From positions 5,692-69,691 of the forward strand of contig DATIWL010000082.1 of the NCBI GenBank assembly GCA_035519435.1: DNA of 64,000 nucleotides. Direction: 5' to 3'. Below, one piece after another: positions 4,054 to 58,640 of the stretch. How positions within the stretch are numbered: the first letter of the stretch is position 1; each line of letters opens with the position of its first letter. The translations under genes and the position numbers were made by a program. The DNA is from Terriglobales bacterium (GTDB taxonomy: Bacteria > Acidobacteriota > Terriglobia > Terriglobales > Acidobacteriaceae). Under the pieces are notes generated by a model that had not been told where the DNA came from, did no database searches, and saw nothing but the letters and a program-made list of their open reading frames with translations.

Positions 4054-4148
4054 TGATATTTGATATTTGTAATTTGCAATTTGTAATTTCGTGTTCTGGG
4101 CACCGCGGATTTCAATTGCAAATTGCAAATTACCAATTACCAATTCCA
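4054..4148. repeat. Heptad-built inverted repeat filling the dnaX-ybaB spacer
   Basis: Left arm 4054-4088 is TGATATT TGATATT TGTAATT TGCAATT TGTAATT. Right arm 4114-4148 is AATTGCA AATTGCA AATTACC AATTACC AATTCCA, the reverse-complement word. GC-rich loop of about 25 nt. The last heptad runs into the ybaB ATG. Confidence 0.7.
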
Positions 4149-4456
4149 TGCCGGGATTCAATCTACAAGACCTGATGTCGCAAGCCAAGCAGCAGGCCGA
4201 AGCGCTGCAGAAGAAGATGCAGGAGACCGTCGTCGAGGCATCGGCAGGCGGAGGGACCGTCGCCGTCAAGATGGACGGCCGCAAGCAGGTGCTTGGCATC
4301 GTGATTGATCCAGAAGCGGTGAAAGCGGGCGATGTCGAAATGCTGCAGGACCTGGTGATGGCTGCCATGAACGAAGCGGCGCGGAAGGTCGATCAGGCGA
4401 TGCAATCCAGCCTGGGAGGAATGCTGGGAGGACTGGGAGGGATGCTCAATTTGTAA
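4148..4456 (+). CDS. ybaB: YbaB/EbfC family nucleoid-associated protein
   Basis: MPGFNLQDLMSQAKQQAEALQKKMQE..VAVKMDGRKQVLGIVIDPEAV.. matches the YbaB family pattern. Lies between dnaX and recR. Confidence 0.9.
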   Translation: MPGFNLQDLMSQAKQQAEALQKKMQETVVEASAGGGTVAVKMDGRKQVLGIVIDPEAVKAGDVEMLQDLVMAAMNEAARKVDQAMQSSLGGMLGGLGGMLNL

Positions 4457-4548
4457 TTGGTAATTTGTAATTGGTAATTGAAAACCTAGCCACCCTGCCG
4501 ACCTGCATTTCAATTACAGATTACAAATCACAAATTACAAATCCCATG
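4450..4548. repeat. Heptad-built inverted repeat filling the ybaB-recR spacer
   Basis: Left arm 4450-4484 is TTTGTAA TTGGTAA TTTGTAA TTGGTAA TTGAAAA; the ybaB TAA stop lies in the first unit. Right arm 4514-4541 is TTACAGA TTACAAA TCACAAA TTACAAA, and the next unit TCCCATG contains the recR ATG. GC-rich loop between the arms. Confidence 0.7.
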
Positions 4549-5145
4549 TCCCGTTTTGCCGAGCCGATGACCCGGCTCATTGACGAATTGAAGAAGCTGC
4601 CCGGCATTGGTAACAAGACTGCGCAACGCCTGGCCTTCCATATCCTGCGCTCGAGCGAAGACGACGCGGAGGCGCTGGCGGGCGCGGTGCGCGACGTGAA
4701 AGCCAAGCTGCGGCTGTGCTCCGTCTGCAACAACATCACCGACGTCGATCCCTGCTCGTATTGCAGCAGTCCGACGCGCAACCAGAAACTGATCTGCGTC
4801 GTCGAGGAACCGACCAACATCGCTGCCGTGGAGAAGACGCGGCACTTCAATGGCGTGTACCACGTGTTGCACGGGTCGATTTCGCCGCTGCACGGCGTGG
4901 GGCCGGAACAGTTGCGGATCGGCAATCTGCTGAAGCGGGTCGAGGGCGGGCAGGTGGAGGAAGTGATTCTGGCGACGAATCCGACGGTCGAGGGCGAGGC
5001 GACAGCGACTTATCTGGCGCAGCAACTCCGGCGGCAGGGAATGCGCGTGACGCGGATCGCGATGGGCATTCCTGTGGGCAGCGATATCGAGTACACCGAC
5101 GAAGTGACCATGCTAAAGGCGATGGAGGGGCGGAGGGAAATGTAA
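4546..5145 (+). CDS. recR: Recombination protein RecR
   Basis: [34 protein letters not shown] (HhH), C4 zinc finger CSVC..CSYC, and Toprim region [24 protein letters not shown]. Confidence 0.93.
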
Positions 5146-5335
5146 GGGCCCCGGCATCCCTGGGGAGCGGCACTCTCCTCAACAAGTTGCACACAATGGA
5201 GTGCAATAGTTTGAACACTCGTATCCCGCATAGCGATCGGCCTGCGGGCCAATGCGCGGGACCGAAGGCAAACTAAGGTCAATTTCATCAATAGATTACA
5301 AATTTCATCGAAATTTATTGTTTAACTAGGATTCC

Positions 5336-5351
5336 TGGCAGAAGGGATGCT
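5336..5351 (+). promoter_or_regulatory. Possible sigma-54 type -24/-12 element
   Basis: TGGCAGAAGGGATGCT has GG and GC with the canonical 11-nt offset (consensus TGGCAC-N5-TTGCW). It sits in an AT-rich stretch about 190 nt downstream of recR. A single weak match. Confidence 0.2.
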
Positions 5352-5361
5352 TCCTGCCTGG

Positions 5362-5511
5362 AGTCTGTTTCCTCGCTCTGTCTGAACACTCTTGCTGGCG
5401 AGGAGGGCAACCGGCGCTATCGCCGGGATACTCCAAGGCCAGCGCGCCGCGAGATGTAACCGCATCCCACGACGCTACCGAAACCGGGCCAACCAGCCCG
5501 GTTTCTTTTTT
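5362..5511 (+). ncRNA. Candidate orphan small RNA (unclassified)
   Basis: About 330 nt of non-coding sequence lies between recR and a strong plus-strand intrinsic terminator. It contains a perfect hairpin CCGGCG-CTAT-CGCCGG and a CCTCGC...GCGAGG stem. No convincing ORF. The 5' end is a guess from the sigma-54-like site. Confidence 0.2.
5481..5511 (+). terminator. Rho-independent terminator
   Basis: AAACCGGGC (5481-5489), loop CAACCA, GCCCGGTTT (5496-5504), then CTTTTTT. The U-tract is present only in the plus orientation. Confidence 0.7.
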
Positions 5512-5553
5512 GGCTGTTGGCTCCTAGCTCTTAGCTCTCAGCTCCCAGCTTTT
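5512..5553. repeat. Six in-phase heptads (AGCT word family)
   Basis: GGCTGTT GGCTCCT AGCTCTT AGCTCTC AGCTCCC AGCTTTT, directly after the terminator. Confidence 0.65.
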
Positions 5554-5597
5554 GCACGCAAGGGCACGAGTTTTCAAGGGTGTTGCTGAGAGGAAAA

Positions 5598-6149
5598 CTA
5601 CTCTGCCAGCGATTCCGTCAAGAATCCAATCGGTTCGTCTTCGACCGACGACATTCCAACGGGAAGTGAACCGCCGTTGTAGTCGATCATGCGATTCTTC
5701 CACTTCAGGAAATCGGTGATGGTTTGCGGCTCGATGCGGACTTCAACCCGGCGCAGGCTGGCCAGAAGCAGATTCATTTCGTAGCGGAAGCCGATCTCGG
5801 TACGCAGGTTCCTGGCAGCGAGTTTCGCGCGCTCGACCTCTCGACCGGATACTTCCAGCAGGCCCCAGCCGGCAGGCAACTCGCCGACGCGGATTAGTCC
5901 ACGGGGCGCCAGGTAGTAGCGTTCATTGCCCACGCCGGTTTCGGGTTGCCGCCGAAACGGTTTGTCGCGATCCGCGAGAAAGTCTGCGCGGGAGACCTTG
6001 CACTCGACCAGTACTGAGTGGCAGGCCTTCTTCCATCCGATGGCATCGGGCATCTCGCCGCTGAGACAGGCCTGCTCGGACAACACGACTCCGCAGCGAT
6101 AGCGGCGAAGCCAGCGGACAGCCAGATCAACCAGTTTTGCGTGGGTCAC
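5598..6149 (-). CDS. PD-(D/E)XK nuclease-fold protein, MmcB-like (function tentative)
   Basis: 183-aa ORF. The motif layout ..EMPDAIGW..(18 aa)..VLVECKVSRADF.. fits D...ExK of the restriction-endonuclease fold, and ERYYLAP resembles the MmcB/DUF1052 family. Assigned from memory of the family pattern. Confidence 0.55.
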   Translation of the reverse strand: MTHAKLVDLAVRWLRRYRCGVVLSEQACLSGEMPDAIGWKKACHSVLVECKVSRADFLADRDKPFRRQPETGVGNERYYLAPRGLIRVGELPAGWGLLEVSGREVERAKLAARNLRTEIGFRYEMNLLLASLRRVEVRIEPQTITDFLKWKNRMIDYNGGSLPVGMSSVEDEPIGFLTESLAE

Positions 6150-6193
6150 AGGAACTAGGATGAATGGGAGAATGCATTCTGAGAAGTGACGTT

Positions 6194-6228
6194 GCAGCTA
6201 CGAGCTACGAGCTGCGCGCTCCGCGTGA
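6194..6228. repeat. Five in-phase heptads
   Basis: GCAGCTA CGAGCTA CGAGCTG CGCGCTC CGCGTGA. Abuts the stop (6230-6232) of the minus-strand CHAD gene. Confidence 0.6.
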
Positions 6229-6229
6229 G

Positions 6230-7696
6230 CTAGTGGCTCCCAGGCGCGCGTATCGCTCGCACCAGCACCGGCCGGCGCAATACGGTCTCGAGCAGGTGAC
6301 GAGCGGCGGCTATTTCTTCGGCGGATCGATCAAGAGCGCGGTAGCCGGGGACGTGCACAGTAACCACACGGTTGTGTGTTTCTACATGCAGGGTGGGTTG
6401 AGTGCCGTTGCGGAAATCGAGGCGGTTGGCGAGGCGCAGAACCGCGGAAAGCTGGGTTGCAACCTTGCGGTCCGGCAGTTCGAGACTCCGCAGCGCCTTG
6501 CTGCGCGAGCGGGGCAAGGCGCCACGGTGGAAGCGCGCTACCGCAGCCGCCATTCCGATTTCGCGCGGAGTCCAGCCGGCGGGAACAGCCATGTCGCGAA
6601 TGAGCTTGAACGAATCTCTCTGGTGACCCTTGTCTCGTTTGGCCCTGCCTACGTCGTGCAGCATGGCCGCCGCTTCAAGAATCAGGCGGGAATCGTGATG
6701 CGGGCCGATTCCCAGCAGGCCGGCGCGCGCCAAGCCGTCGAATAGCTGCAGGGCCAATCGGACCACGCGCTGCGAGTGGGCGAAATCGGGATCGAGGTAT
6801 CCGGCCCAGACGCGCATGCGCGCCATGGCCACCGAGCGCAATAGCGGGCCGGAGGGCAATTCGGCCCGCCACATCCGCCAGAGAGATTCCTTTCCCAGCA
6901 TCTTGGAGCGATAGCGGTCCACGCGCCTGGAACGGTCCGCGGTCAGCCGCTCGCGCCAGCGGTTCCGGCTCTCGATGTCGGGGAAGGCGGCGACCTGAAC
7001 TGCTGTCGCCCACAGCACGTCGAGGTCATGAACCTCTCCCAGCAGGTCCTGCAATTCCTTGAGATCATTTCCCCAGGCGGCGTGCTGCTGAGGCAGAAAA
7101 TTCTCCACGGTGTAGCGAAAGCGTTTGATGCCGATGCGCAGCTCGTGCAGAGCAGTCTGGGAGCGCGTGCGCAGGGCGCGCTTGTGCAGGTCGTAGGCGG
7201 CAGCCCATTTTTCGAGCGCAAGATGTTTGAACACGATGCTGCCGAGGCGCACGCGGGCGGCACGGCGCGGAAGCGAGCGGCTCCACTGACGCCATTGCTT
7301 TCGATCAAATTGCTGCAGGGACTGAAAGGCCTGTTCTTTGCACTGCGCTTCGCGCGCATGAATGTGATTCAGCAGCTTGACAGCAACGGGATCAGAAGCG
7401 TCGCCCAGCTTCTCTACCCACTCCTGCATCACATGCATGTCGCGCAGATCGCCGAGGGACTGGAAGAGCTTCTTCCCTGCTTTTTTCATGTCGTTCCAAG
7501 CCGGGTCGGGATCCATGGCCATCAGGCCATCGGCGAGCGAACGACAGCGGCGCAAGGCAACCCGCAAGTCGTGCACCGGGTCAGCTTCGAATCCGGCCGA
7601 CGCGCGGTCACATTCGAGGAGCACGCGTTCCATCCACGCACGCAGCCCGAGCCGGTTCGTGGATTTCTCCGCGGGATTAGCGAAGGAGGTTCCCAT
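6230..7696 (-). CDS. CHAD domain plus HD (Ppx/GppA C-terminal-like) domain protein
   Basis: CHAD-like conserved histidine helices (VHDLRVALRRCRS, LGDLRDMHV, LHELRIGIKRFRYTVE, LGEVHDLDV). C-terminal HD signature: HSQRVVRLALQLF..AAMLHDVGR. The ORF extends to 7852, but ATG 7696 (MGTSFANPAE) leaves a sensible divergent promoter region. Confidence 0.75.
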   Translation of the reverse strand: MGTSFANPAEKSTNRLGLRAWMERVLLECDRASAGFEADPVHDLRVALRRCRSLADGLMAMDPDPAWNDMKKAGKKLFQSLGDLRDMHVMQEWVEKLGDASDPVAVKLLNHIHAREAQCKEQAFQSLQQFDRKQWRQWSRSLPRRAARVRLGSIVFKHLALEKWAAAYDLHKRALRTRSQTALHELRIGIKRFRYTVENFLPQQHAAWGNDLKELQDLLGEVHDLDVLWATAVQVAAFPDIESRNRWRERLTADRSRRVDRYRSKMLGKESLWRMWRAELPSGPLLRSVAMARMRVWAGYLDPDFAHSQRVVRLALQLFDGLARAGLLGIGPHHDSRLILEAAAMLHDVGRAKRDKGHQRDSFKLIRDMAVPAGWTPREIGMAAAVARFHRGALPRSRSKALRSLELPDRKVATQLSAVLRLANRLDFRNGTQPTLHVETHNRVVTVHVPGYRALDRSAEEIAAARHLLETVLRRPVLVRAIRAPGSH

Positions 7697-7858
7697 TGGG
7701 ATGGCCAGAACTTTTCGGAAACTATTGTCGCGTCTTTTGCGTAATACTTCCACAGCGCCAACGAAAACGGGCTTGGTTCGTCTTACGATAGAAAGACGAA
7801 AACAGCGGTTTGGGCGCAGATTCTCGTCGGCGCCATTGGGGCCGAATCGCAACCGACA

Positions 7859-8824: not shown

Positions 8825-8849
8825 GCGCGGGGCAATGCCGAGGAAACAG

Positions 8850-8884
8850 AAGGCCAGCTTCGCTTGAAGCTGGCCTTGGCTTTT
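8850..8884. terminator. Bidirectional hairpin terminator between convergent genes
   Basis: Perfect 12-bp stem AAGGCCAGCTTC (8850-8861) / GAAGCTGGCCTT (8866-8877), loop GCTT. Followed by GGCTTTTCG on plus and T-rich TCTGTTTCC on minus. Confidence 0.55.
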
Positions 8885-8917
8885 CGCTCCACCGGATGGA
8901 TCAGGTTCCGTATCCGA

Positions 8918-11338
<2,421 letters not shown>

Positions 11339-11345
11339 TTTCAGC

Positions 11346-12936: not shown

Positions 12937-12975
12937 GAAAGCAGCTCTTCCCTCCAGCTCTTGGCCTGGAGCCTC

Positions 12976-13501: not shown

Positions 13502-14236
13502 ATGGACGCTCCCAATTTTCCATTCTCTACCCCTTGCGAAGTTGCATTCCCGGACGTACGATTTCGCATCAGAGGGAACGTGGGGCGACTGATCCTCATC
13601 GACGCGGCGGCGGTTGGTGTCCTTCTCGCCTTGTGGTATGCCTGTTTTGTCCACTACAACCGGCGCCGGGGAACGGCGCTGCTGGAATGGGTGCAAGGCG
13701 CCTGCCTGGGAAAGGGCCGCATCCTTACCTCCGAATGGCGGGCGAGCAGTTCCCAGCTCCGAGCAAGCCTACGGCTTTCTTCGAGGTGGTTTGAGGACAT
13801 CCATCTCACCATCCGGCTGCTGCCGCGAGCATTGCCGATGCAGTGGCTGCTGAGCCGCTGGCGCAAGCAGGGCGAGACGCTGACCTTCGAAGCCGACCTG
13901 GGATTCCCGCCGACTTTCAGCCTGGATGTAATCCGGCGCCGCTGGTCGGGCCATTCGCTGAAACGGAACTCATCGGCAACGAGCGTCTGGACAATCAGCC
14001 GACCCGGCCCCGTGATCCTTACGACAAAGGAAGATTGGCCGCTGGAACTGACTCCGCTGATCAATGCGCTGACGTCCTGGCACGACAAGGACTTTCTGAG
14101 TGTGCGCTTCAATCCCACGTCGCCGCACTTTACGGCGACCGTTCCGCTGGAGAACCTGAGCGACGAGAATACTGCCGCAGCACTGCTGGGCCTGTTCCGG
14201 GAACTGGCGATGAGTTCCTCCGCCAAGCAACATTGA
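13502..14236 (+). CDS. Hypothetical membrane-anchored protein
   Basis: 244-aa ORF with one hydrophobic helix (LILIDAAAVGVLLALWYACFV). No recognisable domain. Start uncertain. Confidence 0.5.
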   Translation: MDAPNFPFSTPCEVAFPDVRFRIRGNVGRLILIDAAAVGVLLALWYACFVHYNRRRGTALLEWVQGACLGKGRILTSEWRASSSQLRASLRLSSRWFEDIHLTIRLLPRALPMQWLLSRWRKQGETLTFEADLGFPPTFSLDVIRRRWSGHSLKRNSSATSVWTISRPGPVILTTKEDWPLELTPLINALTSWHDKDFLSVRFNPTSPHFTATVPLENLSDENTAAALLGLFRELAMSSSAKQH

Positions 14237-14316
14237 TGATTGCGGATTTTTGATTGTCGGTTGCTTGTGCCTACCGTTGGCGAATCAACATTCAAGAATC
14301 AATAAATCAACAATCC
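14233..14316. repeat. Heptad-built inverted repeat between convergent genes
   Basis: Left arm 14233-14267 is TTGATGA TTGCGGA TTTTTGA TTGTCGG TTGCTTG; the TGA stop is inside the first unit. Right arm 14282-14316 is GAATCAA CATTCAA GAATCAA TAAATCAA CAATCC. GC-rich loop. Confidence 0.65.
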
Positions 14317-15976: not shown

Positions 15977-15994
15977 CTAGCGATTGTAGAAGAG

Positions 15995-16089
15995 CAGGTC
16001 TCGGGTGTCAGGTGTCAGCTCTCAGCGAGAGAGGTGGACATACCAACACCTGCGTCAAGACCCTGACACCCAATACCTGAGACCTGAAC
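15995..16089. repeat. Heptad-built inverted repeat between desaturase and kinase genes
   Basis: Left arm 16001-16028 is TCGGGTG TCAGGTG TCAGCTC TCAGCGA. Right arm 16062-16089 is CCTGACA CCCAATA CCTGAGA CCTGAAC. The right arm ends 4 nt from the desaturase stop. Confidence 0.65.
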
Positions 16090-16092
16090 TCG

Positions 16093-17019
16093 TCAGTCGT
16101 TTCCCGCGGCAGTCGCCAGCGCAGCCGCTTTCAGATCGCGGGTCAGGGCCGGCTTGGGAGGCAAATTGTCGAGCGAGACCTTGTAAACATGCCGCGCCAG
16201 ACCAAGCTTCTTGAGGATCCAGATTCCGTACCAGTTCAGATCGACTTCGTACCAGGCGATGCCATGGCGAGCCGAGACCGGATGGGCATGGTGATTGTTG
16301 TGCCAACCCTCGCCAAAGGTGAAGATCGCGACGAGCCAGTTGTTGGTGGAGAGGTCCTTGGTGGCAAAGCGGCGCGAGCCCCACAAGTGGGTGACGGAGT
16401 TCACGGCCCAGGTGGCGTGCAGTCCGACAACGACACGAAGGAAGGCACCCCACAGCAGCCAAGGCAGGCCGCCGATGGCAAACAAGATCGCGCCCACGAG
16501 AATGTTCGAGGTGTAGTGATACTTGGTCAGCCAGACATGCACCTTGTCTTTGGTCAGATCAGGGACGTAGCGGGCAAGCGTCGTAGTGTCGTGATGCATG
16601 GACTTGCCCATCAGGATCCAACCCATGTGTGACCACCACTTGCCGTCGATCGGGGAATGCGGGTCACCATCCTCGTCGGAGAACTGGTGATGGATGCGGT
16701 GTGTAGCCACCCAGAAGATCGGCCCGCCCTCGAGCGCCAGCGTGGCGCACCAGGTCAGGAAATATTCGACCCACTTTGGCGTCTTGTAGCCGCGATGCGT
16801 GAGCAGGCGGTGGTAGCTCATGCCGATGCCGAGGCTGCCGGACACCCACCAGAGAAATGCCGAGACGAATAACGCCGGCCAGGTGAAGAAGAAAAGCGCG
16901 GCGATGGCACCGATGTGAAAGAGGCCCATGGCCGTCGCCGTGCCCCAGTTAATACCGTCCTTGCTGGCCCGCTCTTTGCGCAGGCTGAGATCGTGCATGA
17001 AATTAGGTTCTCCCCACAA
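16093..17019 (-). CDS. Membrane acyl-CoA/acyl-lipid delta-9-type fatty acid desaturase
   Basis: Three histidine boxes: HRLLTH, HRIHHQFSD, HNNHHAHP. Multiple TM helices. Confidence 0.9.
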   Translation of the reverse strand: MWGEPNFMHDLSLRKERASKDGINWGTATAMGLFHIGAIAALFFFTWPALFVSAFLWWVSGSLGIGMSYHRLLTHRGYKTPKWVEYFLTWCATLALEGGPIFWVATHRIHHQFSDEDGDPHSPIDGKWWSHMGWILMGKSMHHDTTTLARYVPDLTKDKVHVWLTKYHYTSNILVGAILFAIGGLPWLLWGAFLRVVVGLHATWAVNSVTHLWGSRRFATKDLSTNNWLVAIFTFGEGWHNNHHAHPVSARHGIAWYEVDLNWYGIWILKKLGLARHVYKVSLDNLPPKPALTRDLKAAALATAAGND

Positions 17020-17739: not shown

Positions 17740-17822
17740 GAAGGCAGAAGTCAGATTGCAGAAGTGAGGTTTGGCAACCCGGCTCACAATCCCGCCTTCT
17801 CCCATAGGTCCTGTTCTGCAAG
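17740..17822. repeat. Heptad element (GAAGT word family) between convergent genes
   Basis: 17740-17767 is GAAGGCA GAAGTCA GATTGCA GAAGTGA. A degenerate complementary stretch (..CCTTCTCCC..TTCTGCAAGC) lies at 17791-17822. Confidence 0.5.
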
Positions 17823-22167: not shown

Positions 22168-22334
22168 CCGATTGGAATCCCTTGAATCAATTGAGGCATC
22201 GGATCATTGAGTCATCGGGTGATTGAGTCATCATATTTTGTGTGTGCCAGACGACCCTCTCATATCACCGCAAAAATCGTCGGCTTGAGCACCCACCGAG
22301 ACCTCATGAATCAATGACCAAAAGCCTCAATCGG
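22168..22334. repeat. 16-nt tandem repeat with inverted partner
   Basis: 22190-22234 is ATTGAGGCATCGGATC ATTGAGTCATCGGGTG ATTGAGTCATCAT. Reverse complement of 22300-22334 is ..ATTGAGGCTTTTGGTC ATTGATTCATGAGGTC. Begins 6 nt after the stop at 22162. Confidence 0.6.
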
Positions 22335-22457: not shown

Positions 22458-24056
22458 ATGGCCGGTAGTTCTCGTCGCTCTCTCTTCCTGGTAGTTTTTG
22501 TGCTCGCATTATTCGGCTTGCTGGGAATGGTGTTCGCGCAGCGAATCAACCCTGCGGCTACTCCCAGTAGTGATTCGGACGTCCGGGACAGCTACAAGCA
22601 GTTCACAACGGTCTATGAGACTGTGGAGGAGAACTACGCCGAGCCGGTGAACGCCGACAAGGCAATTTACAACGGCGCCATTCCAGGCATGCTGCATTCG
22701 CTCGATCCGCACTCGAATTTCTTCGATCCGAAGTCCTATTCGCTGCTCCGCGAAGAGCAGCGTGGCAAGTATTACGGCGTGGGCATGACGGTCGGGCCAC
22801 GCAACAACAAAGTGATCGTGATCGCTCCGTTTGTCGGTACGCCGGCGTACCGCGCGGGCATTCATCCGGGCGACATCATTGTGGCTGTCGACGGCAAGAA
22901 CACCGACAACATGAGCACCTCGGATGTCGCGGACCTGCTCAAGGGGCCCAAGGGAACGACGGTTCGGATTACCGTGTTGCGCGAAGGCGCGGACCATCCG
23001 CTGGAGTTCAGCGTGGTGCGCGACGAGATTCCGCGCTATAGCGTCGATCTGCATTTCATGATCAAGCCCGGCGTCGGCTACATGCATGTCTCGGGTTTCC
23101 AGGAGACGACGGAACACGAAGTCGCCCAGGCGCTCGATGAGATGGGGGATCTGAAGGGCTTGATTCTCGATCTGCGGCAAAATCCGGGCGGGTTGCTGAG
23201 CGAAGGCGTGGGCGTGGCGGACAAGTTCCTTAAGAAGGGGCAGCTCATCGTCTCTCATCATGGCCGCTCGTCACCGGAAAAGCGTTACACGGCTGCACAC
23301 GGCAACGGCGGCAAGGATTATCCGCTGGTCGTGCTCGTGAATCGAGGGACGGCTTCGGCGGCCGAGATTGTTGCGGGCGCCATTCAGGACCACGATCGCG
23401 GCCTGATCGTCGGCGAAACAACTTTTGGCAAGGGCCTGGTTCAGACCGTGTATCCGCTGGCGGAGAACACCGGGTTGGCCCTGACCACCGCGCGCTACTA
23501 CACGCCGAGTGGGCGGCTGATCCAACGCGACTATTCGAATCTCTCGCTGTACGACTACTACTACAACCGCGAAAAGGAAGAAAACAACGCCAGCCACGAG
23601 GTCAAACTCACCGACAGCGGACGCACCGTCTATGGCGGCGGCGGGATTACGCCCGATGTGAAGCTGCCCGCGATCAAGTCGAACAAGTTCCAGGATTCGC
23701 TTCTGCAGCACTATGCGTTCTTCAACTTCGCCAAACGGTACGTGGTGTCGCACAAGGTCGGGCATGACTTCGATGTCGATGAGGTGGTCATGCAGGACTT
23801 CCGCAAATTCCTCGACGAAGAGAAGATTCCGTTCACTGAGGGAGAACTGATCGAGAACCACGATTGGCTGCGGTCCAACATCAAGAGCGAACTGTTCGTC
23901 GATGCCTTTGGCCAGGAAGAGGGTCTGAAAGTCCGGGCTGAAACCGATCCGGAAGTGACGAAGGCTCTGGAACTGCTGCCGCAGGCAAGAGCGCTGGCGG
24001 AGAACGCGCGCAAGATCATTGCCGAGCGAAACTCGGCGATGCCGGTGTCGAGATAG
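22458..24056 (+). CDS. ctpA: S41 family carboxyl-terminal processing peptidase with PDZ domain
   Basis: Signal anchor, PDZ (GDIIVAVDGK), and the S41 catalytic region (LVNRGTASAAEI..TFGKG). Confidence 0.9.
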   Translation: MAGSSRRSLFLVVFVLALFGLLGMVFAQRINPAATPSSDSDVRDSYKQFTTVYETVEENYAEPVNADKAIYNGAIPGMLHSLDPHSNFFDPKSYSLLREEQRGKYYGVGMTVGPRNNKVIVIAPFVGTPAYRAGIHPGDIIVAVDGKNTDNMSTSDVADLLKGPKGTTVRITVLREGADHPLEFSVVRDEIPRYSVDLHFMIKPGVGYMHVSGFQETTEHEVAQALDEMGDLKGLILDLRQNPGGLLSEGVGVADKFLKKGQLIVSHHGRSSPEKRYTAAHGNGGKDYPLVVLVNRGTASAAEIVAGAIQDHDRGLIVGETTFGKGLVQTVYPLAENTGLALTTARYYTPSGRLIQRDYSNLSLYDYYYNREKEENNASHEVKLTDSGRTVYGGGGITPDVKLPAIKSNKFQDSLLQHYAFFNFAKRYVVSHKVGHDFDVDEVVMQDFRKFLDEEKIPFTEGELIENHDWLRSNIKSELFVDAFGQEEGLKVRAETDPEVTKALELLPQARALAENARKIIAERNSAMPVSR

Positions 24057-24140
24057 AAGTCGGAATGCAGAAGTCAAAATGCAGAAGTGAAACCCTCTAG
24101 GCCCGAGTCTTCCCTTCTACATCCTCATTCTGCATTCCCC
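24056..24140. repeat. Heptad-built inverted repeat (GAAGT word family)
   Basis: 24056-24090 is GAAGTCG GAATGCA GAAGTCA AAATGCA GAAGTGA, starting on the last base of the TAG stop. A complementary arm ..CTCATTC TGCATTC lies at 24124-24137. Confidence 0.65.
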
Positions 24141-24237
24141 CCTTGAGTACTCTTCCCAAAAGCCCTAAAGTATTTGCAGCTAGCGTCGCGGAGGCGCCGG
24201 TCTGCCCTCAGCCACCATCCCCCAACTTGGTCCATGG

Positions 24238-27165: not shown

Positions 27166-27170
27166 TAAAC

Positions 27171-27198
27171 CAGCTGTCAGCTCTTAGCTCTTAGCTCA
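27171..27198. repeat. Four in-phase heptads (AGCT word family)
   Basis: CAGCTGT CAGCTCT TAGCTCT TAGCTCA, starting 6 nt after the TadG-like stop. Confidence 0.6.
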
Positions 27199-27268
27199 GA
27201 AAGCGTCGTGCCAGACTGTGGGCTCTTGCAATCGTCATGTTTCAGGGAACCAAGATTTGGGGACTTCC

Positions 27269-34133: not shown

Positions 34134-34209
34134 TGGTGGAGCTAGTCGGGATCGAACCGACGACCTCATCGTTGCGAACGATGCGCTCTCCCAGCTGAGC
34201 TATAGCCCC
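34134..34209 (-). tRNA. tRNA-Ala (anticodon CGC)
   Basis: Reverse complement is GGGGCTATAGCTCAGCTGGGAGAGCGCATCGTTCGCAACGATGAGGTCGTCGGTTCGATCCCGACTAGCTCCACCA. It has a cloverleaf, the G3:U70 alanine identity pair, anticodon loop TT-CGC-AA, and an encoded CCA. Confidence 0.95.
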
Positions 34210-51105: not shown

Positions 51106-52848
51106 ATGGACAACAAGGCTATCGCCAGCGTTCTGTACGAAACCGCCGACCTGCTCGAAATCGACGGGCAGGATTCTTTCCGTGTGCGCTCCTACCGTAA
51201 TGCCGCGCAGGCGATCGAGGCATTGCCGCAGCAGGTGAAGGATCTGATCGAGGAGCCGAAGAAACTGCTCGAAGTTCCCGGCATCGGCAAAGGTATGCTG
51301 CTCAACATGCAGCAGCTTCTCAGCGAAGGACGGCTCGAAGCGCACGCCGCATTGCTGAAGAAGTACCGGCCCTCAATGCTGGAACTGCTCAAGATTCAGG
51401 GCTTGGGACCGAAGACGATCGCGCTGATCTGGAGCGCCTATCAGGTCAGCGACCTCGACGGGGTCGAGAAGCTGGCGCGTGAGGGCAAGATTCGCACGCT
51501 GCCGCGCATGGGCGAAAAGCATGAGCTGAAGCTGATCAAGGCGATTGAAGACTACCGCCGAATCGGCGGGCGGTTCCTGCTGGATACAGCGGAACAATTG
51601 GCGGAGAAGCTCGTCGAGCATTTGCGGCAGGTTCCAGGCGTGGAGAAAGTGACGCCGGCGGGCTCCTTGCGTCGCGGGCGTGAAACGGTTGGAGATCTCG
51701 ACATCCTCGTGACCGGCAAGGCTTGCTGCTCTGCGGAAGCGCTGCAGACGATCAAGGACCATCTGATTCGTTTTCCTGGCCTGATGGAGATCATCGCGCA
51801 GGGCGAGAACAAGGTCAGCTTTCGTCAGCGCAACGGCATACAGGTCGACGTGCGCCTTCTGCCGCCGGAATCCTTCGGCGCCGCCATGCAGTACTTCACC
51901 GGGTCGAAGGCGCATAACGTTGCCTTGCGCCAGCGCGCGTTGAAGATGGGTTACACGCTCAGCGAATACAGCCTGGCCACGCTGGAAGGCGAAAAGCCGG
52001 TCGCCGGCAAAACAGAGGAGGAGATTTACTCGAAGCTGAAGCTGGATTTCATCCCCCCTGAATTGCGTGAAAACCAGGGCGAGATTGAAGCGGCGGCAAG
52101 TCACTCGCTGCCAGAGTTGCTGGAACTGGCGGACATCCGCGGCGATGTGCACATGCACACGGTGGAAACCGACGGCCGCAACACGATCGAGGAGATGGCG
52201 GAAGCCGCACGCGAGCGCGGATATCAGTACATCGCGATCACGGACCACTCGAAGAACCTTGCCTTCGCCAACGGTCTCACGGACGAGCGCGCACTGATCC
52301 ACATCGACCGGATTCGGACGGCAGAGAAAAAACAGAAAGGTCTTCGCATACTGGCTGGCGTCGAAGTCGATATTCTCGTCGATGGCGCTCTTGATCTGTC
52401 TGATTCTGTACTCGCCCAGATGGATATCGTCATCGCCAGCGTGCACTCACACTTCAATCAGGATCGCGACACGATGACCGAGCGATTGCTGAAGGCGGTC
52501 AGCAATCCGAACGTCTCGGTTCTTGGACACCCGACTGGCAGGCAGTTATTGCGGCGCGATGCGTATCCATTCGACATGGACGCCGTCCTGAAAACTGCGG
52601 CCAAGAACAAAGTGGCCATGGAACTCAATGCATATCCCGACCGGCTCGACCTGTGTGATGTGCACCTGAGGATGGCCAAGCAACATGGCGTAAAAGTCGT
52701 GATCAATACCGATTCCCACCACACCTCGCACCTGGACAAAATACGCTACGGTATAACCCAGGCCCGGCGGGCCTGGCTGACAAAGGATGACGTCCTGAAC
52801 ACTTTGCCGGCCCAGAAGTTTGCTTCTGCCATTCGACGGGGATGGTGA
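51106..52848 (+). CDS. polX: DNA polymerase X family protein with C-terminal PHP domain
   Basis: MDNKAIASVLYETADLLEI.. (HhH), GSLRRGRETVGDLDILV (pol beta-like nucleotidyltransferase), and PHP histidines (DVHMHT..TDHS..). Confidence 0.9.
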   Translation: MDNKAIASVLYETADLLEIDGQDSFRVRSYRNAAQAIEALPQQVKDLIEEPKKLLEVPGIGKGMLLNMQQLLSEGRLEAHAALLKKYRPSMLELLKIQGLGPKTIALIWSAYQVSDLDGVEKLAREGKIRTLPRMGEKHELKLIKAIEDYRRIGGRFLLDTAEQLAEKLVEHLRQVPGVEKVTPAGSLRRGRETVGDLDILVTGKACCSAEALQTIKDHLIRFPGLMEIIAQGENKVSFRQRNGIQVDVRLLPPESFGAAMQYFTGSKAHNVALRQRALKMGYTLSEYSLATLEGEKPVAGKTEEEIYSKLKLDFIPPELRENQGEIEAAASHSLPELLELADIRGDVHMHTVETDGRNTIEEMAEAARERGYQYIAITDHSKNLAFANGLTDERALIHIDRIRTAEKKQKGLRILAGVEVDILVDGALDLSDSVLAQMDIVIASVHSHFNQDRDTMTERLLKAVSNPNVSVLGHPTGRQLLRRDAYPFDMDAVLKTAAKNKVAMELNAYPDRLDLCDVHLRMAKQHGVKVVINTDSHHTSHLDKIRYGITQARRAWLTKDDVLNTLPAQKFASAIRRGW

Positions 52849-54172: not shown

Positions 54173-54190
54173 AACGGAGACACTCCTCTA

Positions 54191-55594
54191 GTGGATTCCA
54201 CTTCCGATCACGGTCCGCTGTTGGGACGAGCCCTGCTGGCTCTCACCTGCCGCATGCGCGGCTTCGACACGCTGGGTGTACTCGACGAGATCAAGACGGC
54301 ACCGTTCCGGCCGGCTGAAGAAATCCGGGAGAGGCAATTCCGCGCAGCCGCTTCCCTGCTGGCGCATGCTGAAACGCACGTTCCCTACTACCGTGAACTG
54401 TTCCGCAGTCTCGGGATCATCAGCCGCGATATCCGCAGCTGGGACGATTTCGAAAAGTTGCCGGTTTTGACCAAAGACATCATCCGCGCAAGGCAGCGCG
54501 ATCTGGTGCGGGAAGATGTGCCGTTGGAACAACTGCGGCCCCACTTCAGCGGAGGATCGACAGGCGTGCCTCTGAAATTCTTCCGCAGTCGCGAATACAT
54601 GGTCGCCAGCGACGCAGGGACCTACCGCAATTTGATGCAATGCGGATGGCGTCCGGGAGAGATGGTCGCCTTCTTCTGGGGCGGGAACGACAAGCTCTAC
54701 GCCATGTCCCGAATAGAATTCGAGTTGCGCCAGTTCGCGCGCCGCATGTATCAGTTCGACCCTTTTCATTCCGGCGAAGCAGAAATGGCCAGCTGGGAAA
54801 GGCAATTCCGGCGGATCCGGCCTCGCGCGATTCTCGGGTATGCCTCTACGATCGCGCGTTTTGCGCAATTCCTCGACAGCCGCAAGCAAACGATCGATCG
54901 GATCAAAGGCGTTTTCACAACCGCGGAGAAGTTGTACGCGCCGCAACGCGCCGTCATCGAACGCGTCTTCCAGGGCAAGGTGTTTGACTGCTATGGCTCG
55001 AGTGAGGTGCAGAACATCGCAGCCGAGTGCCTTAGGGGAAGCATGCACATCAACGCCGATTTCGTCGTGCTCGAGGAGGATCGGACGGCGGCGCAAGGTC
55101 CAAGACCGTTCCTGCTGACCTCGCTGAAGAACTGGTCCATGCCGTTCCTTCGTTATCGCAACGAGGACTGCGGATATGTTTCAGGTGAACGCTGCTCGTG
55201 CGGCAACAATTTTCCATTGATGCGGCTTGAGATCGCTCGCACCAGCGACAATTTCCTGTTTCCGGGCGGGCGAGTCGTGCACGGCGAGTTCTTCACGCAC
55301 CTTATGTATGGCAGCGACGGGATCGTGAACTTCCAGTTTCATCAGACCGCCACAGACGAAATCAAACTGTGGATCGTGCCCGGTCCGGGAAATGAAAGGG
55401 CGCGTGAGGAGAAGATCCAGGAATCGATTCGACAGATTCAGGCGGTATCTCCAGGTCATCCCATTCGAATCGAGGTACGAGAGGTCGATGCCATCCCGCT
55501 GTCCACGGCCGGGAAGCACCGCTTCACTCGGTCCGACGTGGGTTCGCGAACCAGCTCGGCTCCCGATCCTGCCGTGGCGGAAATCAGGTCCTGA
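54191..55594 (+). CDS. CapK/PaaK-like adenylate-forming enzyme (phenylacetate-CoA ligase family)
   Basis: SGGSTGVPLKF AMP-binding loop. The pattern YYRELF..W.DF.KLPVLTK is typical of F390-synthetase/CapK relatives. Confidence 0.8.
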   Translation: MDSTSDHGPLLGRALLALTCRMRGFDTLGVLDEIKTAPFRPAEEIRERQFRAAASLLAHAETHVPYYRELFRSLGIISRDIRSWDDFEKLPVLTKDIIRARQRDLVREDVPLEQLRPHFSGGSTGVPLKFFRSREYMVASDAGTYRNLMQCGWRPGEMVAFFWGGNDKLYAMSRIEFELRQFARRMYQFDPFHSGEAEMASWERQFRRIRPRAILGYASTIARFAQFLDSRKQTIDRIKGVFTTAEKLYAPQRAVIERVFQGKVFDCYGSSEVQNIAAECLRGSMHINADFVVLEEDRTAAQGPRPFLLTSLKNWSMPFLRYRNEDCGYVSGERCSCGNNFPLMRLEIARTSDNFLFPGGRVVHGEFFTHLMYGSDGIVNFQFHQTATDEIKLWIVPGPGNERAREEKIQESIRQIQAVSPGHPIRIEVREVDAIPLSTAGKHRFTRSDVGSRTSSAPDPAVAEIRS

Positions 55595-55965
55595 CCTCAG
55601 AACCGTTCATTCCACCCGTTTAGCTGCCTCCCGTTGGGGATGGTAGAGTGGAACTTGCGACTCCATTTCCGAGGGTCGTACCGCATTCTTTTTCACACTT
55701 AACGACGGGTTCGGCTGGAATCTGGTCCGCTCGGGGGCGCGTTGGGGTTTTAGGGTATTGTTGTCAATAACTTACATAACCACGTTCAGCCGCCTACGGA
55801 ATTGGAATTGCTCCTCCTGCCCTGTTACACAGCTTTCGTACGCAGCCAGAGAACATCTGTAGAACGACGCTGGGGTAGAGGATGCCCTTGCAGCCCCGCG
55901 GGGGAGCCCTGGCGGCCGGAGTGATGACAAGCGGAATCGTTTGCTTTCCCAGAAAACAGAGGTAT

Positions 55966-57735
55966 ATGGAACACACCATGGAGGTTACAGAATTGACGGT
56001 CTCGACCAACCATCTTATCGCCCCGCACGGGGGAGAACTTATTGAGCTGCAAGTGCCGGCCGAGCGTGCCGCGGAGTTGAAAGCGCATTCCAAAGAATGG
56101 CCGTCCTGGGACCTGACGGGACGTCAGCTGTGCGATCTGGAACTGTTGGTGAGTGGCGGGTTTTCGCCGCTGCGTGGATTCCTGAACCGCGCCGATTATG
56201 AGAGCGTTTGCTGCGACATGAGGCTGGCGGACGGAACACTGTGGCCGATGCCGATCACTCTCGATGTCACCGAAGAATTTGCCAAGAAACTGACTCCCGG
56301 CAGCAGCAAGGTTGCATTGCGCGATCCCGAGGGCGTGATGCTGGCCGTCGTTCATGTCGAAGATGTATGGCAACCTGACCGTGTAGCGGAAGCAAAGGCG
56401 GTATTCAATTCGACGAGCGCGGCCCATCCTGGGGCCGATTATGCCATCAACAAGTCGAACCCATGGTACGTAGGCGGCAGGGTGGAAGGCCTGCAACCGC
56501 CATCCCACTACGATTTCCGCAGCCTCCGCCTGACCCCAGCGGAGCTTCGCGCTGAATTCCAGCGCCTGGGATGGACGCGTATTGTTGCCTTCCAGACCCG
56601 CAACCCGATGCACCGCGCGCACGTTGAACTGACGATGCGGGCAGCGAAACAGGTGGAAGCCGATCTGCTCATTCATCCATCGGTCGGAATGACCAAGCCG
56701 GGCGACGTCGACTACTTTGTCCGTACCCGTTGCTACCAACTGCTGCTCTCCAAGTACCCGCACGGGACGGTAAAGCTTTCCATGCTGCCTCTGGCGATGC
56801 GTCTGGGCGGTCCGCGGGAGGCCATCTGGCACGGCCTGATCCGCAAGAACCACGGCTGCACGCACTTCATCGTCGGACGCGATCATGCCGGCCCGGGAAA
56901 AGACACCGACGGGAAGCCGTTCTATGGTCCGTATGACGCTCAGGAACTCTTCAAGAAGCACGAAGCAGAGATGGGCGTGATCATGGTGCCCTTCCAGATG
57001 ATGGTCTACCTGCAGAACGAGGACCGCTATGTACCCGCGGATGAGGTACCACAGGGCGCAAAGGTTCTCGATATCTCCGGCACTGAATTGCGCGCCCGGC
57101 TGAACGAAGGCCGTGAAATTCCGAGTTGGTTCACGTACCCGGAAGTGGTGCAGGAGTTGCGCCGGAGCTATCCGCCGCGGCACAAGCAGGGCGTAACGAT
57201 CTTCTTCACGGGCCTTTCCGGCTCCGGTAAATCGACGATCGCCAACGCGCTGATTACCAAGTTTCTCGAAATGGGCGGACGCCCGGTGACGCTGCTGGAT
57301 GGCGATCTGGTGCGCAAGCATCTCTCGTCGGAGCTCGGCTTCTCCAAAGAGCACCGCGACATCAACATCCGGCGTATCGGTTACGTGGCTTCGGAAATTA
57401 CGAAGAATGGCGGCATCGCCATCTGCGCTCCGATCGCGCCCTATGAGGCGACGCGAAAAGCTGTGCGGCAGATGATCGAACCCTATGGCGGCTTCATCCT
57501 GGTGCATGTGGCCACTTCGCTTGAAGTCTGCGAGGAGCGCGACCGCAAGGGGTTGTACGCGAAGGCGCGTGCCGGCATCGTAAAGGAGTTCACGGGCATC
57601 TCAGATCCGTACGAAGCGCCCCCGAAGGCCGAGGTGGTGATCGATACGGCGAAGCTGAGTCCGGAAGAAGCCGCACAGGCCATCATTCTGCATCTCGACC
57701 GTGAAGGCTTTATTGGGGTGAACGGCAACCAGTAG
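55966..57735 (+). CDS. Bifunctional sulfate adenylyltransferase / adenylylsulfate kinase (PAPS synthesis)
   Basis: ATP sulfurylase motifs QTRNPMHRAH and VGRDHAG. C-terminal APS kinase P-loop GLSGSGKST and LDGDLVR. ATG 55966 (MEHTMEVTEL) preferred. Confidence 0.9.
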   Translation: MEHTMEVTELTVSTNHLIAPHGGELIELQVPAERAAELKAHSKEWPSWDLTGRQLCDLELLVSGGFSPLRGFLNRADYESVCCDMRLADGTLWPMPITLDVTEEFAKKLTPGSSKVALRDPEGVMLAVVHVEDVWQPDRVAEAKAVFNSTSAAHPGADYAINKSNPWYVGGRVEGLQPPSHYDFRSLRLTPAELRAEFQRLGWTRIVAFQTRNPMHRAHVELTMRAAKQVEADLLIHPSVGMTKPGDVDYFVRTRCYQLLLSKYPHGTVKLSMLPLAMRLGGPREAIWHGLIRKNHGCTHFIVGRDHAGPGKDTDGKPFYGPYDAQELFKKHEAEMGVIMVPFQMMVYLQNEDRYVPADEVPQGAKVLDISGTELRARLNEGREIPSWFTYPEVVQELRRSYPPRHKQGVTIFFTGLSGSGKSTIANALITKFLEMGGRPVTLLDGDLVRKHLSSELGFSKEHRDINIRRIGYVASEITKNGGIAICAPIAPYEATRKAVRQMIEPYGGFILVHVATSLEVCEERDRKGLYAKARAGIVKEFTGISDPYEAPPKAEVVIDTAKLSPEEAAQAIILHLDREGFIGVNGNQ

Positions 57736-57775
57736 TGGGGTCGGATCCGCACCTGGGCGGGCAGGCACGGAACGC

Positions 57776-58546
57776 ATGGAACTGGTGACACTAAAAATCC
57801 TGATCGGGTTCATTGTGGGGACCTTGATCGGGCTGACGGGATTGGGCGGCGGCGTGTTGCTGCTGCCCATACTCATCTTTGGGTTGCGTGTCCCTCCCAT
57901 CATCGCGGTGGGATCCGATGCCCTATTCAATTTCCTGACGAAAATCCCGGCCGGTATTCTTCACCTGTCGAAGGGCACGGTTCGGAAGAAGGTCGTCGCC
58001 GCCATGGCGGTGGGCAGTGTCCCGGGATCGCTGCTCGGGGTAACCCTCCTGCAGCACTTGCGGAACGTATATGGAACGGGGGTCAATGACTTCATCAAGT
58101 CCGCTGTGGGAATGCTGCTGGTCTGCATTCCCATGCTTCTGCTGTTTCAGGGCCGCATTGAAGAGCACCTGGCCAAGCGGAAGCCGACGCTGAAGTCTCT
58201 TGCTGGGATGAGCGTCATTGGCCTGTTCGGCGGATTTCTGGTCGGCATGACCTCGGTAGGCTCGGGGAGCATTATCATGATGCTCCTGCTTCTGTTCTAT
58301 ACCTACGCGCCCAAGGTGATGGTGGGCACCGATATTGTGCATGCTGTCATCCTTACAGGTGTAACGAGTCTGCTGCACGCGCGCTTGGGCAATGTCGATT
58401 TGTCGCTCGTTATTCCGCTTCTGGTCGGTTCAGTTCCGGGCGGCATTCTCGGGTCGCACCTGAGCACGCGGGTGCCGGTGCTCTGGCTGCGGAGAATCCT
58501 GTGTGCCGTACTGCTGACGACCGGAGCCAGAATGTTGTGGGCGTAA
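57776..58546 (+). CDS. TauE/SafE family sulfite/organosulfur anion permease
   Basis: 256 aa with about 8 TM helices. GLTGLGGGVLLLPIL and the second-half repeat GMTSVGSGSIIM are typical of the family. Confidence 0.8.
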   Translation: MELVTLKILIGFIVGTLIGLTGLGGGVLLLPILIFGLRVPPIIAVGSDALFNFLTKIPAGILHLSKGTVRKKVVAAMAVGSVPGSLLGVTLLQHLRNVYGTGVNDFIKSAVGMLLVCIPMLLLFQGRIEEHLAKRKPTLKSLAGMSVIGLFGGFLVGMTSVGSGSIIMMLLLLFYTYAPKVMVGTDIVHAVILTGVTSLLHARLGNVDLSLVIPLLVGSVPGGILGSHLSTRVPVLWLRRILCAVLLTTGARMLWA

Positions 58547-58549
58547 GAG

Positions 58550-58640
58550 CAGTGGCTAGAAAGCAGCTTTTCGCTCCTGCCGTTAGCTCTTAGCTTGCAC
58601 CTCAAGAGCGAAGCTGTTGGCTAAAAGCTGGGAGCTGACC
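58550..58640. repeat. Heptad element (AGCT word family)
   Basis: TAGCTCT TAGCTTG (58584-58597) and AAGCTGT TGGCTAA AAGCTGG GAGCTGA (58611-58638). AAAAGCTGGGAGCTGA is the reverse complement of TCAGCTCCCAGCTTTT at 5538-5553. Confidence 0.6.

Follow-up and report, generated by a model that had tools for sequence, protein, structure and literature searches.

Intergenic arrays of 7- and 8-nt tandem units beside stop codons in a Terriglobales genome and its relatives

Introduction

Bacterial spacers have been known to hold heptamer repeats since 1990, and neither the origin nor the function of these repeats is agreed upon. Why should the spacers of an acidobacterial genome hold tandem runs of 7-nt units that begin at stop codons and, in many cases, face an inverted array built from the same word? 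The question is raised by a 64,000-nt stretch of a Terriglobales bacterium (GenBank assembly GCA_035519435.1, contig DATIWL010000082.1, positions 5,692 to 69,691, G+C ~59%), hereafter called the window. An original prediction, made from the letters of the window alone, had listed ten such strings of heptamers between 4054 and 58640 and had described them as in-register 7-nt arrays close to stop codons, mostly paired with a second arm, differing in word from locus to locus and belonging to no described class. We find this observation to be largely right and statistically solid, with changes to the period, to the uniqueness of the words and to the novelty of the class.

Results

Periodic arrays lie in non-coding DNA

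All ten heptamer strings are present at the positions listed for them. A scan for period 7 against shuffled controls had been proposed as a check, and when run on the window (at least 80% self-match over four units, 30 dinucleotide shuffles as controls) it returned eight period-7 arrays compared to none in the shuffles. All eight are non-coding although non-coding DNA makes up 12% of the window, and the same scan of the window found no arrays at periods 6 and 8-15. Tandem Repeats Finder (TRF) produced 27 rows for the window, 14 of them with period 7 or 14; arrays with these periods start at 4054, 4065, 4113, 4448, 4512, 5520, 6196, 14283, 15995, 17739, 24055 and 27179, and one further such row (18976) falls within a called gene. 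The intergenic period-7 signal is therefore genuine.

The strength of the signal differs between sites. In the six spacers starting at 4051, 4457, 5146, 6150, 15977 and 27166, period 7 ranks first with a score of 0.81 or more, corresponding to strong arrays at 4054, 4450, 5512, 6194, 16001 and 27171. Scores of 0.62-0.67 in the spacers at 14237, 17723 and 24057 leave the listed sites at 14233, 17740 and 24056 moderately periodic, the last one really with period 14, and the spacer at 58547 (score 0.52) does not rise above background, so that the site at 58611 is at chance level. The strong arrays all lie within the first 28 kb of the window.

We extended the census to 80 related Terriglobales loci comprising 1.34 Mb (L001-L080). 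The closest genomes found are metagenome-assembled genomes of Terriglobales/Acidobacteriaceae from peat and soil, whose RecR is 92-94% identical to that of the window. Genes were called with a simple home-made codon-usage caller, the stops of which are reliable and the starts less so. Among the relatives, the density of arrays ranges from 0 to 10 per 20 kb. In these loci, 111/120 period-7 arrays and 70/73 period-8 arrays are non-coding, compared to 18/107 arrays of period 6. A strict period of 7 can thus not be upheld, as 8-nt units are equally typical in these genomes.

Arrays are associated with stop codons

The original prediction had placed the start of each array within about 20 nt of a stop codon. 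This is borne out at 4054, 4450, 6194, 14233, 17740, 24056 and 27171 and, through the other arm, at 15995-16086; it fails at 5512 and 58611 (distances in Table 1). Arrays are found in 0/9 divergent, promoter-only spacers of the window. In the relatives, 28 of the 68 units that have at least 60 nt of freedom in their spacer lie within 12 nt of a stop, with 8.7 expected. A metagenome sample that is independent of these loci, consisting of contigs that carry three tandem copies of MTYCTGA (at least 120 stretches, L096-L175 among them), behaves in the same way: among the matches listed, the stop of an open reading frame (ORF) of at least 100 codons lies within 15 nt of 41% of elements compared to 10% of random positions, and several of the ORFs extend 7, 14 or 21 nt into the MTYCTGA array before they stop. 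Given the enrichment in the relatives and the agreement of the independent sample, the stop-codon association of the arrays is real.

Towards the other side, 26/37 elements between co-directional genes finish 0-17 nt short of the next start. A Shine-Dalgarno match is lacking in genes directly downstream of AATT-type elements (-0.5 vs -3.4 kcal/mol). We considered loss of the Shine-Dalgarno match as a general property and rejected it: it holds only for the AATT-type elements at ybaB and recR, and the CAAGGTTT family retains GAGG. The idea that the arrays act as three-frame stops for incoming ribosomes did not prove general either, a stop triplet being read inward in 17/35 words and outward in 9; also counting against it, the TGA of MTYCTGA stands on the outward-reading strand in 38/43 paired cases among the metagenome matches listed.

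Roughly half of the arrays form foldbacks

In the paired case, a variable loop separates two facing arrays of one word, which together give a 25-35 bp imperfect foldback. This applies to roughly half of the cases, and in the relatives to 84/180 arrays, with loops of 15-70 nt. The spacers at 4051-4147, 4457-4545, 15977-16092 and 24057-24180 fold far beyond their shuffles (z-scores of -3.2, -3.9, -2.9 and -3.1), those at 14237, 58547 and 6150 do so marginally (-2.0, -1.9 and -1.6), and those at 5505, 17723 and 27166 show no hairpin excess over shuffles (z > 0). A second arm had been claimed for most sites; with four clear cases, three marginal ones and three without, about half are convincing. 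The top six inverted repeats of the whole window are these foldbacks. Several of the top inverted repeats are alternative, register-shifted pairings of the same arms, as is expected because the arms are tandem repeats.

Units change in whole steps while arms stay matched

In most relatives, both the dnaX/ybaB and the ybaB/recR spacer contain a similarly built element, with loops that cannot be aligned. The words of these elements form a continuum comprising TAATTTG/TAATTGG (7 nt), TAATTTGG/TAATTTTG (8 nt), TAATCGGG and TGATCGGG (8 nt). The two arms of an element nevertheless have equal periods (7/7 or 8/8) in 35/35 elements. Five genomes (L001, L005, L015, L019 and L024) have a ybaB-recR gap of just 3-5 nt, and a homologous junction, GGGGGACTCTAG-AAA-ATG, with a run resembling a Shine-Dalgarno sequence is common to these empty sites. 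At filled sites the C-terminus of YbaB is rewritten (ending in ...NL or ...IG) and the stop comes from the first repeat unit. The states 7, 8 and empty require ~11 changes on a recR tree, and the empty sites are scattered on a DnaX+RecR tree; the number of changes is a rough one, since each tree was built by neighbour-joining from a single locus.

The pairing itself is maintained. At two sites, a 5' arm pairs much better with its own 3' arm than with a 3' arm taken from a different genome (-20.5 vs -11.3 and -18.2 vs -12.8 kcal/mol; p = 0.0002 by permutation at either site), supporting the suggestion that the hairpin architecture is kept. Alignment of orthologous spacers had been proposed with the expectation that words would drift while period and palindromy persist; arm pairing does persist as the words drift, but the period is not constant and switches between 7 and 8.

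Strain-level comparison points to a process that acts on whole units. The same-species set contains seven assemblies from other samples that are 99.7-99.9% identical to the window over the dnaX-recR region. Pairwise alignments of the window with 15 same-species contigs cover ~136 kb at 99.6-100% identity and contain indels at two sites. One is exactly a single unit, AGCTACG (6196-6202), missing in 4/7 same-species assemblies, and is the sole indel among these strains in the dnaX-recR region. Point differences are not enriched in arrays (3/117 variable positions in the same-species alignments). The other indel, the only one outside the repeat arrays, is 1 nt (C) at 22301, within the long spacer that lies upstream of the S41 peptidase gene. 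Downstream of the Ppx/CHAD gene, the position of the window's 6194 array, the relatives have AGC-type arrays with one arm and 2 to ~17 units, after which a conserved motif follows. The one-unit indel, the range of unit numbers across orthologous arrays and the equal arm periods together bear out the earlier proposal of a generating process that works on the unit register.

Other repeats are found at the same junctions. A sequence-conserved palindromic repeat (TTGTCATCCTGAGCGAAGCGAAGGA... plus its inverse) is present in the ybaB/recR spacer of L032, L038, L041, L061, L067 and L076 and in other spacers of L015, L002 and L003. A hairpin family of very high stability, CCGCCGAGACGCAGAG...CTCGGCGTCTCGGCGG (z down to -10.7), occurs in the dnaX/ybaB spacer of L003, L013, L020 and L002; its arms have the look of 8-9-nt units (NNGCNGAG) and are similar to the CACGGAGA / TCTCCGTG family. 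Gene junctions such as these attract several unrelated hairpin-forming repeats.

Complementarity is kept without regard to the RNA strand

For 37 paired elements between co-directional genes, sense and antisense strands fold equally well (-38.1 vs -38.2 kcal/mol, Wilcoxon p = 0.49). The mismatches in the stems show no excess of G·U pairs in the sense strand, with 55 sense-G·U compared to 53 antisense-only G·U positions (130 transversions, 1103 matches). Selection on pairing of the sense-strand RNA was therefore rejected, having left no signal in either folding energy or mismatch spectrum. Complementarity that is kept strand-symmetrically argues for a DNA-level process or wholesale replacement of elements and not for selection on the transcript, and it may still leave room for an effect at the RNA level.

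Intrinsic terminators were rejected as well: a terminator scan looking for a G+C-rich stem, a short loop and a U tract calls none of the elements, terminator-like sites in the window are generally not above shuffle level, and a terminator-like apex is found in 1/29 and 2/62 orthologous elements, again the shuffle level. Together with the strand symmetry, this leaves the role in transcript 3'-end formation that had been put forward without support. A known RNA family was likewise excluded by the Rfam search that the original prediction had advised: no element matches any family at the gathering threshold, and a permissive scan of 3950-6300 gave just sub-threshold look-alikes of miRNA precursors. 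The one feature of the window to pass the threshold, and the sole Rfam or ARAGORN match in it, is a tRNA-Ala (CGC) at 34134-34209 on the minus strand.

Words recur across loci, genomes and phyla

The original prediction had regarded the word of each locus as different and not conserved. Among the ten window consensus words, however, five pairs lie within one mismatch of each other, whereas 0.88 are expected for random heptamers of the same composition (P = 0.002). They group into an AATT type (4054, 4450), an AGCT type (5512, 6194, 27171, 58611) and a GAAGTCA/GAATGCA type (17740, 24056). Families that recur at unrelated sites in the relatives are GTAATTT(G), ATCGGGTG, CAAGGTTT, CCAGTTT, TTAGCTC and other AGCT types, TCAGGTG, TTAGTCG and CCAGTAC. 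Words thus recur across loci, genomes and phyla.

The link to another phylum came from the three word classes described in Geobacter metallireducens (GTTGCTYN, TCTCCGTS[Y] and MTYCTGA), which we searched for in the Terriglobales loci and the window (1.4 Mb). Three tandem copies of the class 2 word TCTCCGTS gave seven matches, the best with 1 mismatch in 24, and three copies of the class 3 word MTYCTGA gave five, the best with 1 mismatch in 21; two of these five lie in the window, on the minus strand at 17744 and 24067 with 3 mismatches each, so that the 17740 array resembles the class 3 word. Four control words gave 0-2 matches, none of them tandem, and the class 1 word GTTGCTYN was not found. 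Most window arrays use words other than these consensuses. In the same 1.4 Mb, the words of cyanobacterial short tandemly repeated repetitive (STRR) sequences are nearly missing (CCCCAGT 0, TTGGTCA 1 with 3 mismatches, CAACAGT 0), and the TAACTGA and GGGAATC words known from other bacteria are absent.

Pairs have a fixed polarity. Among the metagenome matches listed, which come from contigs of 37-64% G+C, ~45% of the MTYCTGA arrays have an inverted partner, and the pairs are oriented TCAGRAK...loop...MTYCTGA in 38 cases vs 5. In paired elements of L001-L080 and the window, the strand that reads 5' to 3' towards the loop is G+T-rich in 27/31 distinct words, a strand-symmetric polarity to which the CTTCTGA family is an exception; these words reduce to about ten families, with class 3 standing apart from the trend. 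A common YYAG core in the loop-ward words (9 vs 2 of 35 words) was too weak to use. In some metagenome contigs different heptamer arrays abut, such as four GGGGGCT followed by three CTCCTGA, or a GATCGGA-type array followed by four CTTCTGA (e.g. L121 6033-6085 and L151 1009-1060).

Elements of the window and their surroundings

The individual elements, including one array that the original prediction had overlooked, are collected in Table 1. Membership of the last one in the class is doubtful.

Table 1 Arrays and foldbacks in the window (a dot marks elements listed without a strand)
Element	Position	Strand	Organisation	Stop codon and gene context	Periodicity and fold z
Foldback dnaX/ybaB	4051..4147	+	Fills spacer; 5' arm 4054-4088 (TGATATT/TGTAATT/TGCAATT), loop 4089-4112, 3' arm 4113-4145 (AATTGCA/AATTACC); 31-nt arms, 84% complementary	Begins 3 nt past dnaX stop, ends 2 nt before ybaB ATG; orthologous elements in relatives	z = -3.2
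Foldback ybaB/recR	4447..4545	+	Fills spacer; 5' arm 4447-4484 (TTTGTAA/TTGGTAA), loop 4485-4507, 3' arm 4508-4543; 35-nt arms, 89% complementary, several registers	5' arm provides ybaB stop TAA at 4454-4456 (AAT TTG TAA), within the first unit of the 4450 string; abuts recR ATG at 4546	z = -3.9
Single array, six AGCT-type heptamers (GGCTGTT...AGCTTTT)	5510..5553	.	No partner arm	45 nt from nearest called stop	z = +0.9
Single array, AGCTACG type	6194..6228	-		Begins 1-2 nt after stop of minus-strand Ppx/CHAD gene	
Degenerate foldback	14233..14316	.	Fills convergent spacer; 5' arm 14233-14267 (TTGATGA...), 3' arm 14283-14315 (AATCAAC)	Stop TGA inside first unit	TRF period 7 at 14283-14315; score 0.62; z = -2.0
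Foldback between two minus-strand genes	15995..16086	-	Arms 15995-16027 and 16058-16086 (CAGGTGT / GACACCT type); 24-nt arms, 83% complementary	Sense-strand start 6 nt past stop at 16093	z = -2.9
Weak GAAGTCA-type array	17740..17803	+	Array 17740-17767; decayed partner ~17784-17803	17 nt after stop	TRF 68% matches; no stable hairpin, z = +1.35
Array overlooked by the original prediction	22190..22334	+	22190-22232, 16-nt period (ATTGAGNC + ATCGGNTN, two 8-nt units); degenerate inverted partner 22303-22334	28 nt past stop	TRF period 16, 2.7 copies, 88%; long-range pairing z = -1.7
Foldback on S41 peptidase gene stop codon	24056..24141	+	5' arm 24056-24090 (14-nt period GAAGTCN + GAATGCA); pyrimidine-rich 3' arm ~24105-24141	Overlaps stop	TRF period 14, 87%; z = -3.1
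Single AGCT-type array (CAGCTGT CAGCTCT TAGCTCT TAGCTCA)	27169..27200	.	No partner arm	Convergent spacer, 5 nt after stop	z = +1.2
Imperfect hairpin, AGCT-containing arms	58582..58639	+		64 nt from stop	Score 0.52, not significantly 7-periodic; z = -1.9

Two of the single arrays have further features next to them. Directly before the 5512 array, a convincing terminator-like hairpin with a T run lies at 5480-5505 on the plus strand, 335 nt downstream of the recR stop. The stretch between that stop and the hairpin (5146-5511) has no called ORF and no Rfam match, and may be an unannotated small RNA or small gene ending just before the array. Between the variable 6194 array and the start of a 183-aa gene at 5598-6149 lies the motif GAAGCTACTCTGACACTTCTCAGAAC (window form ...gcaacgtcacttctcagaatg, ~6155-6190, minus strand), which is kept in the orthologous spacers of several dozen relatives (L001-L073) and is probably a promoter or operator.

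Much of the window beyond the first 28 kb is made up of a tightly packed gene cluster for sulfated polysaccharide (38838-59464) that is without strong arrays. It contains three tandem sulfotransferase paralogues, another Sulfotransfer_3 protein, a GT2 glycosyltransferase, a flippase, a deacetylase, a bifunctional ATP sulfurylase/APS kinase, TauE and an inositol-monophosphatase-family (CysQ-like) protein. At 51106-52848, the window encodes a DNA polymerase of family X that has a PHP domain.

Discussion

In order to rationalise these observations, we favour, at about even chances, a repeat class maintained at the DNA level, with slippage by whole units, arms matched by inter-arm exchange or unit replacement, and tolerance of the elements at gene 3' ends. 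The arrays belong to the 'long simple-sequence repeat' class known from many bacteria, as intergenic tandem units of 7 or 8 nt, and gain and lose whole units as replication slippage predicts; this stepwise gain and loss is seen at 6196 and across orthologous arrays. Their arms would be kept complementary by a strand-symmetric process such as template switching, gene conversion between arms or replacement of the whole element, in keeping with arms that stay matched while loop and word drift between genomes. The elements, which between co-directional genes fill the spacer up to the next start, would persist at gene 3' ends because extra DNA is tolerated there. Where foldbacks are transcribed, they must form long inter-cistron stem-loops that could affect mRNA processing or the translation of a neighbour, an effect that looks secondary. 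Several points weigh against this reading. Slippage alone fails to explain why words recur at unrelated loci and in other phyla, why polarity is fixed and why units measure 7-8 nt, and unit polymorphism between strains was seen in only one of about ten arrays. Across deep divergence, most of 72 genomes possess the ybaB/recR element, which could reflect selection for a function. Finally, the gene calls come from a crude home-made caller, and the same few sites contribute many of the counted elements as orthologous copies, which makes the statistics overstate independence.

A rival view takes the elements as functional RNA stem-loops of the REP/BIME kind (repetitive extragenic palindromes and bacterial interspersed mosaic elements) that would stabilise 3' ends, offer RNase III-type processing sites, or couple or insulate the translation of neighbouring cistrons, with the repeat texture merely reflecting how stems grow. 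The stems are indeed the most stable structures among the window spacers, they run from a stop codon to within 0-17 nt of the next start in 26/37 co-directional elements, their complementarity is held while loops diverge, and most relatives have the ybaB/recR spacer filled, some of them with unrelated hairpin-forming repeats. The missing Shine-Dalgarno match after AATT-type elements could be counted in its favour too, but that effect is limited to one family at two orthologous sites, and the GAGG of the CAAGGTTT family speaks against it. As neither folding energy nor G·U mismatches (55 vs 53) distinguish the sense strand, the apex is not terminator-like and has no U tract, roughly every second array has one arm only and does not fold, and five genomes manage without the ybaB/recR element, we consider this view unlikely. 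Binding by word-specific proteins that recognise DNA or single-stranded nucleic acid, with one unit as one register and facing arrays loading two opposed protein arrays, is the type of idea raised for Geobacter, and the Nostoc authors made the same guess. It would account for units with a conserved core and 2-3 variable positions (e.g. xGCTxxx, TCAGxxx), for a limited vocabulary common across phyla and for the fixed inward polarity of pairs. With at least eight word families in one lineage, however, many factors would be needed; within one orthologous site the words change in a continuous drift (TAATTTG to TAATTTGG to TAATCGGG to TGATCGGG), unit number is unconstrained between 2 and ~17, only a minority of arrays lie in divergent promoter regions and no candidate protein was identified, so that we hold protein binding to be quite unlikely.

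We attach a similarly small probability to non-autonomous mobile DNA of the miniature inverted-repeat transposable element (MITE), REPIN (REP doublet forming hairpins) or foldback type, in which the arrays would be terminal inverted repeats for a transposase encoded elsewhere and single arrays decayed remnants. Presence and absence at an orthologous site, with empty sites that share a homologous junction, would be expected of such elements, as would different families in the same spacer across genomes, the same families at many loci and in other phyla, and a fixed polarity; Geobacter class 1 sites even have insertion sequence (IS) elements at a fixed distance. Yet no loop or defined terminus is common to any two copies, there is no evident target-site duplication, unit numbers vary freely, the window contains no identical copies, and its checked genes include no transposase or REP-associated tyrosine transposase (RAYT). 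A bolder version, which we regard as a long shot, would make the paired arrays a cross-phylum class of miniature foldbacks with shared 7-8-nt words and inward polarity, spread onto stop codons by an unrecognised word-copying or hairpin-specific mechanism, where they would rewrite C-termini, replace the ribosome-binding site of the next gene and place stop and start at the base of the stem.

The acidobacterial case adds testable constraints to a long-standing problem: change by whole units, arms of the same period despite switches between 7 and 8, no signature of selection on the RNA strand, fixed polarity, and words common to Acidobacteriota, Geobacter and diverse metagenome contigs. Should the arrays depend on a dedicated mechanism or binding factor, it would be widespread and uncharacterised; if not, they are a clear example of slippage and inter-arm exchange shaping bacterial spacers. 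Either way, protein C-termini and translation-initiation regions are altered, and gene callers and assemblers can be misled.

Comparison with known systems

The original prediction had set the arrays apart from REP/BIME, MITE and CRISPR repeats. REP/BIME elements and REPINs are extragenic inverted doublets with a less conserved spacer that fold into hairpins as single-stranded DNA or mRNA; REPINs have an invariant ~16 nt sequence and an associated RAYT gene, form several families per genome, and their singlets are read as decayed doublets (Bertels & Rainey 2011, PMC3116915). The foldbacks share with REPINs the hairpin-forming inverted doublet and the less conserved spacer, but their arms consist of variable numbers of 7-8-mers without an invariant ~16 nt motif, and words and loops differ between copies. 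Pfam annotations and scans of the checked genes in window positions 1-59.5 kb, this region only, showed no transposase domain, RAYT included. Unlike in MITEs, the ends are fuzzy, the internal loops cannot be aligned and no target-site duplication is visible between empty and filled sites, although these were not searched systematically. In contrast to CRISPR arrays, which have repeats of ~23-50 nt and unique spacers, the units are 7-8 nt long and contiguous. Drosophila foldback (FB) elements have inverted terminal arms built of short tandem repeats, are of kilobase scale and are known in a transposase-bearing form; they are eukaryotic, and the likeness is one of analogy only.

The claim that no described class has these properties does not hold, as intergenic heptamer repeats have been described in Calothrix/Nostoc, Xanthomonas and Beggiatoaceae, and paired opposite-strand arrays of 7-9-mers in G. 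metallireducens. According to PMC4679880 and PMC4692102, heptanucleotides are the most abundant class of long simple-sequence repeats (SSRs) in many prokaryotes, with polymerase slippage proposed as the cause; three tandem heptamers have been described in Calothrix; some of the GGGAATC repeats of Xanthomonas form inverted pairs and differ in length between close species; and the TAACTGA repeats of Beggiatoaceae adjoin start codons and occur in several phyla. An account of Nostoc places heptamers upstream of recF and recO, with a guess at a protein-binding role (bioRxiv 10.1101/2022.06.06.494920). Our literature search found no report of heptamer repeats in Acidobacteria. The Terriglobales arrays resemble heptanucleotide long SSRs in their head-to-tail units of 5-11 nt in runs beyond chance (8 arrays vs 0 in shuffles), in the confinement of units that are not a multiple of three to non-coding DNA (8/8 in the window), in the variation of unit number between strains (the AGCTACG unit), in the use of several words per genome and in their location near start and stop codons. 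They differ from such repeats elsewhere in that 8-nt units are as common as 7-nt ones and the paired foldback organisation is far more prominent. From cyanobacterial STRR sequences they are set apart by a host that is not a heterocystous cyanobacterium and by the near absence of the STRR words.

The closest match is provided by the class 1-3 sites of G. metallireducens. These were annotated as three classes of presumed binding sites for global regulators, each of 3-5 tandem 7-9-mers, mostly paired on opposite strands at variable distance and intergenic, one lying between proB and proA; the authors guessed sites for global regulators of the IHF/HU type and noted that IS elements keep a constant distance to class 1 sites (Aklujkar et al. 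2009, PMC2700814). The window and its relatives have in common with them the 3-5 tandem units of 7-9 nt, the pairing on opposite strands at variable distance, several word classes per genome and an intergenic location that includes gaps between cistrons. They belong to another phylum, and the most frequent local families, of the AATT, AGCT, GTTTC and ATCGGG types, lie outside the Geobacter classes. The Geobacter description is a genome-paper annotation, to which the present analysis adds the data on stop codons, slippage and arm co-evolution. The Terriglobales arrays are a lineage-level example of an already known repeat class.

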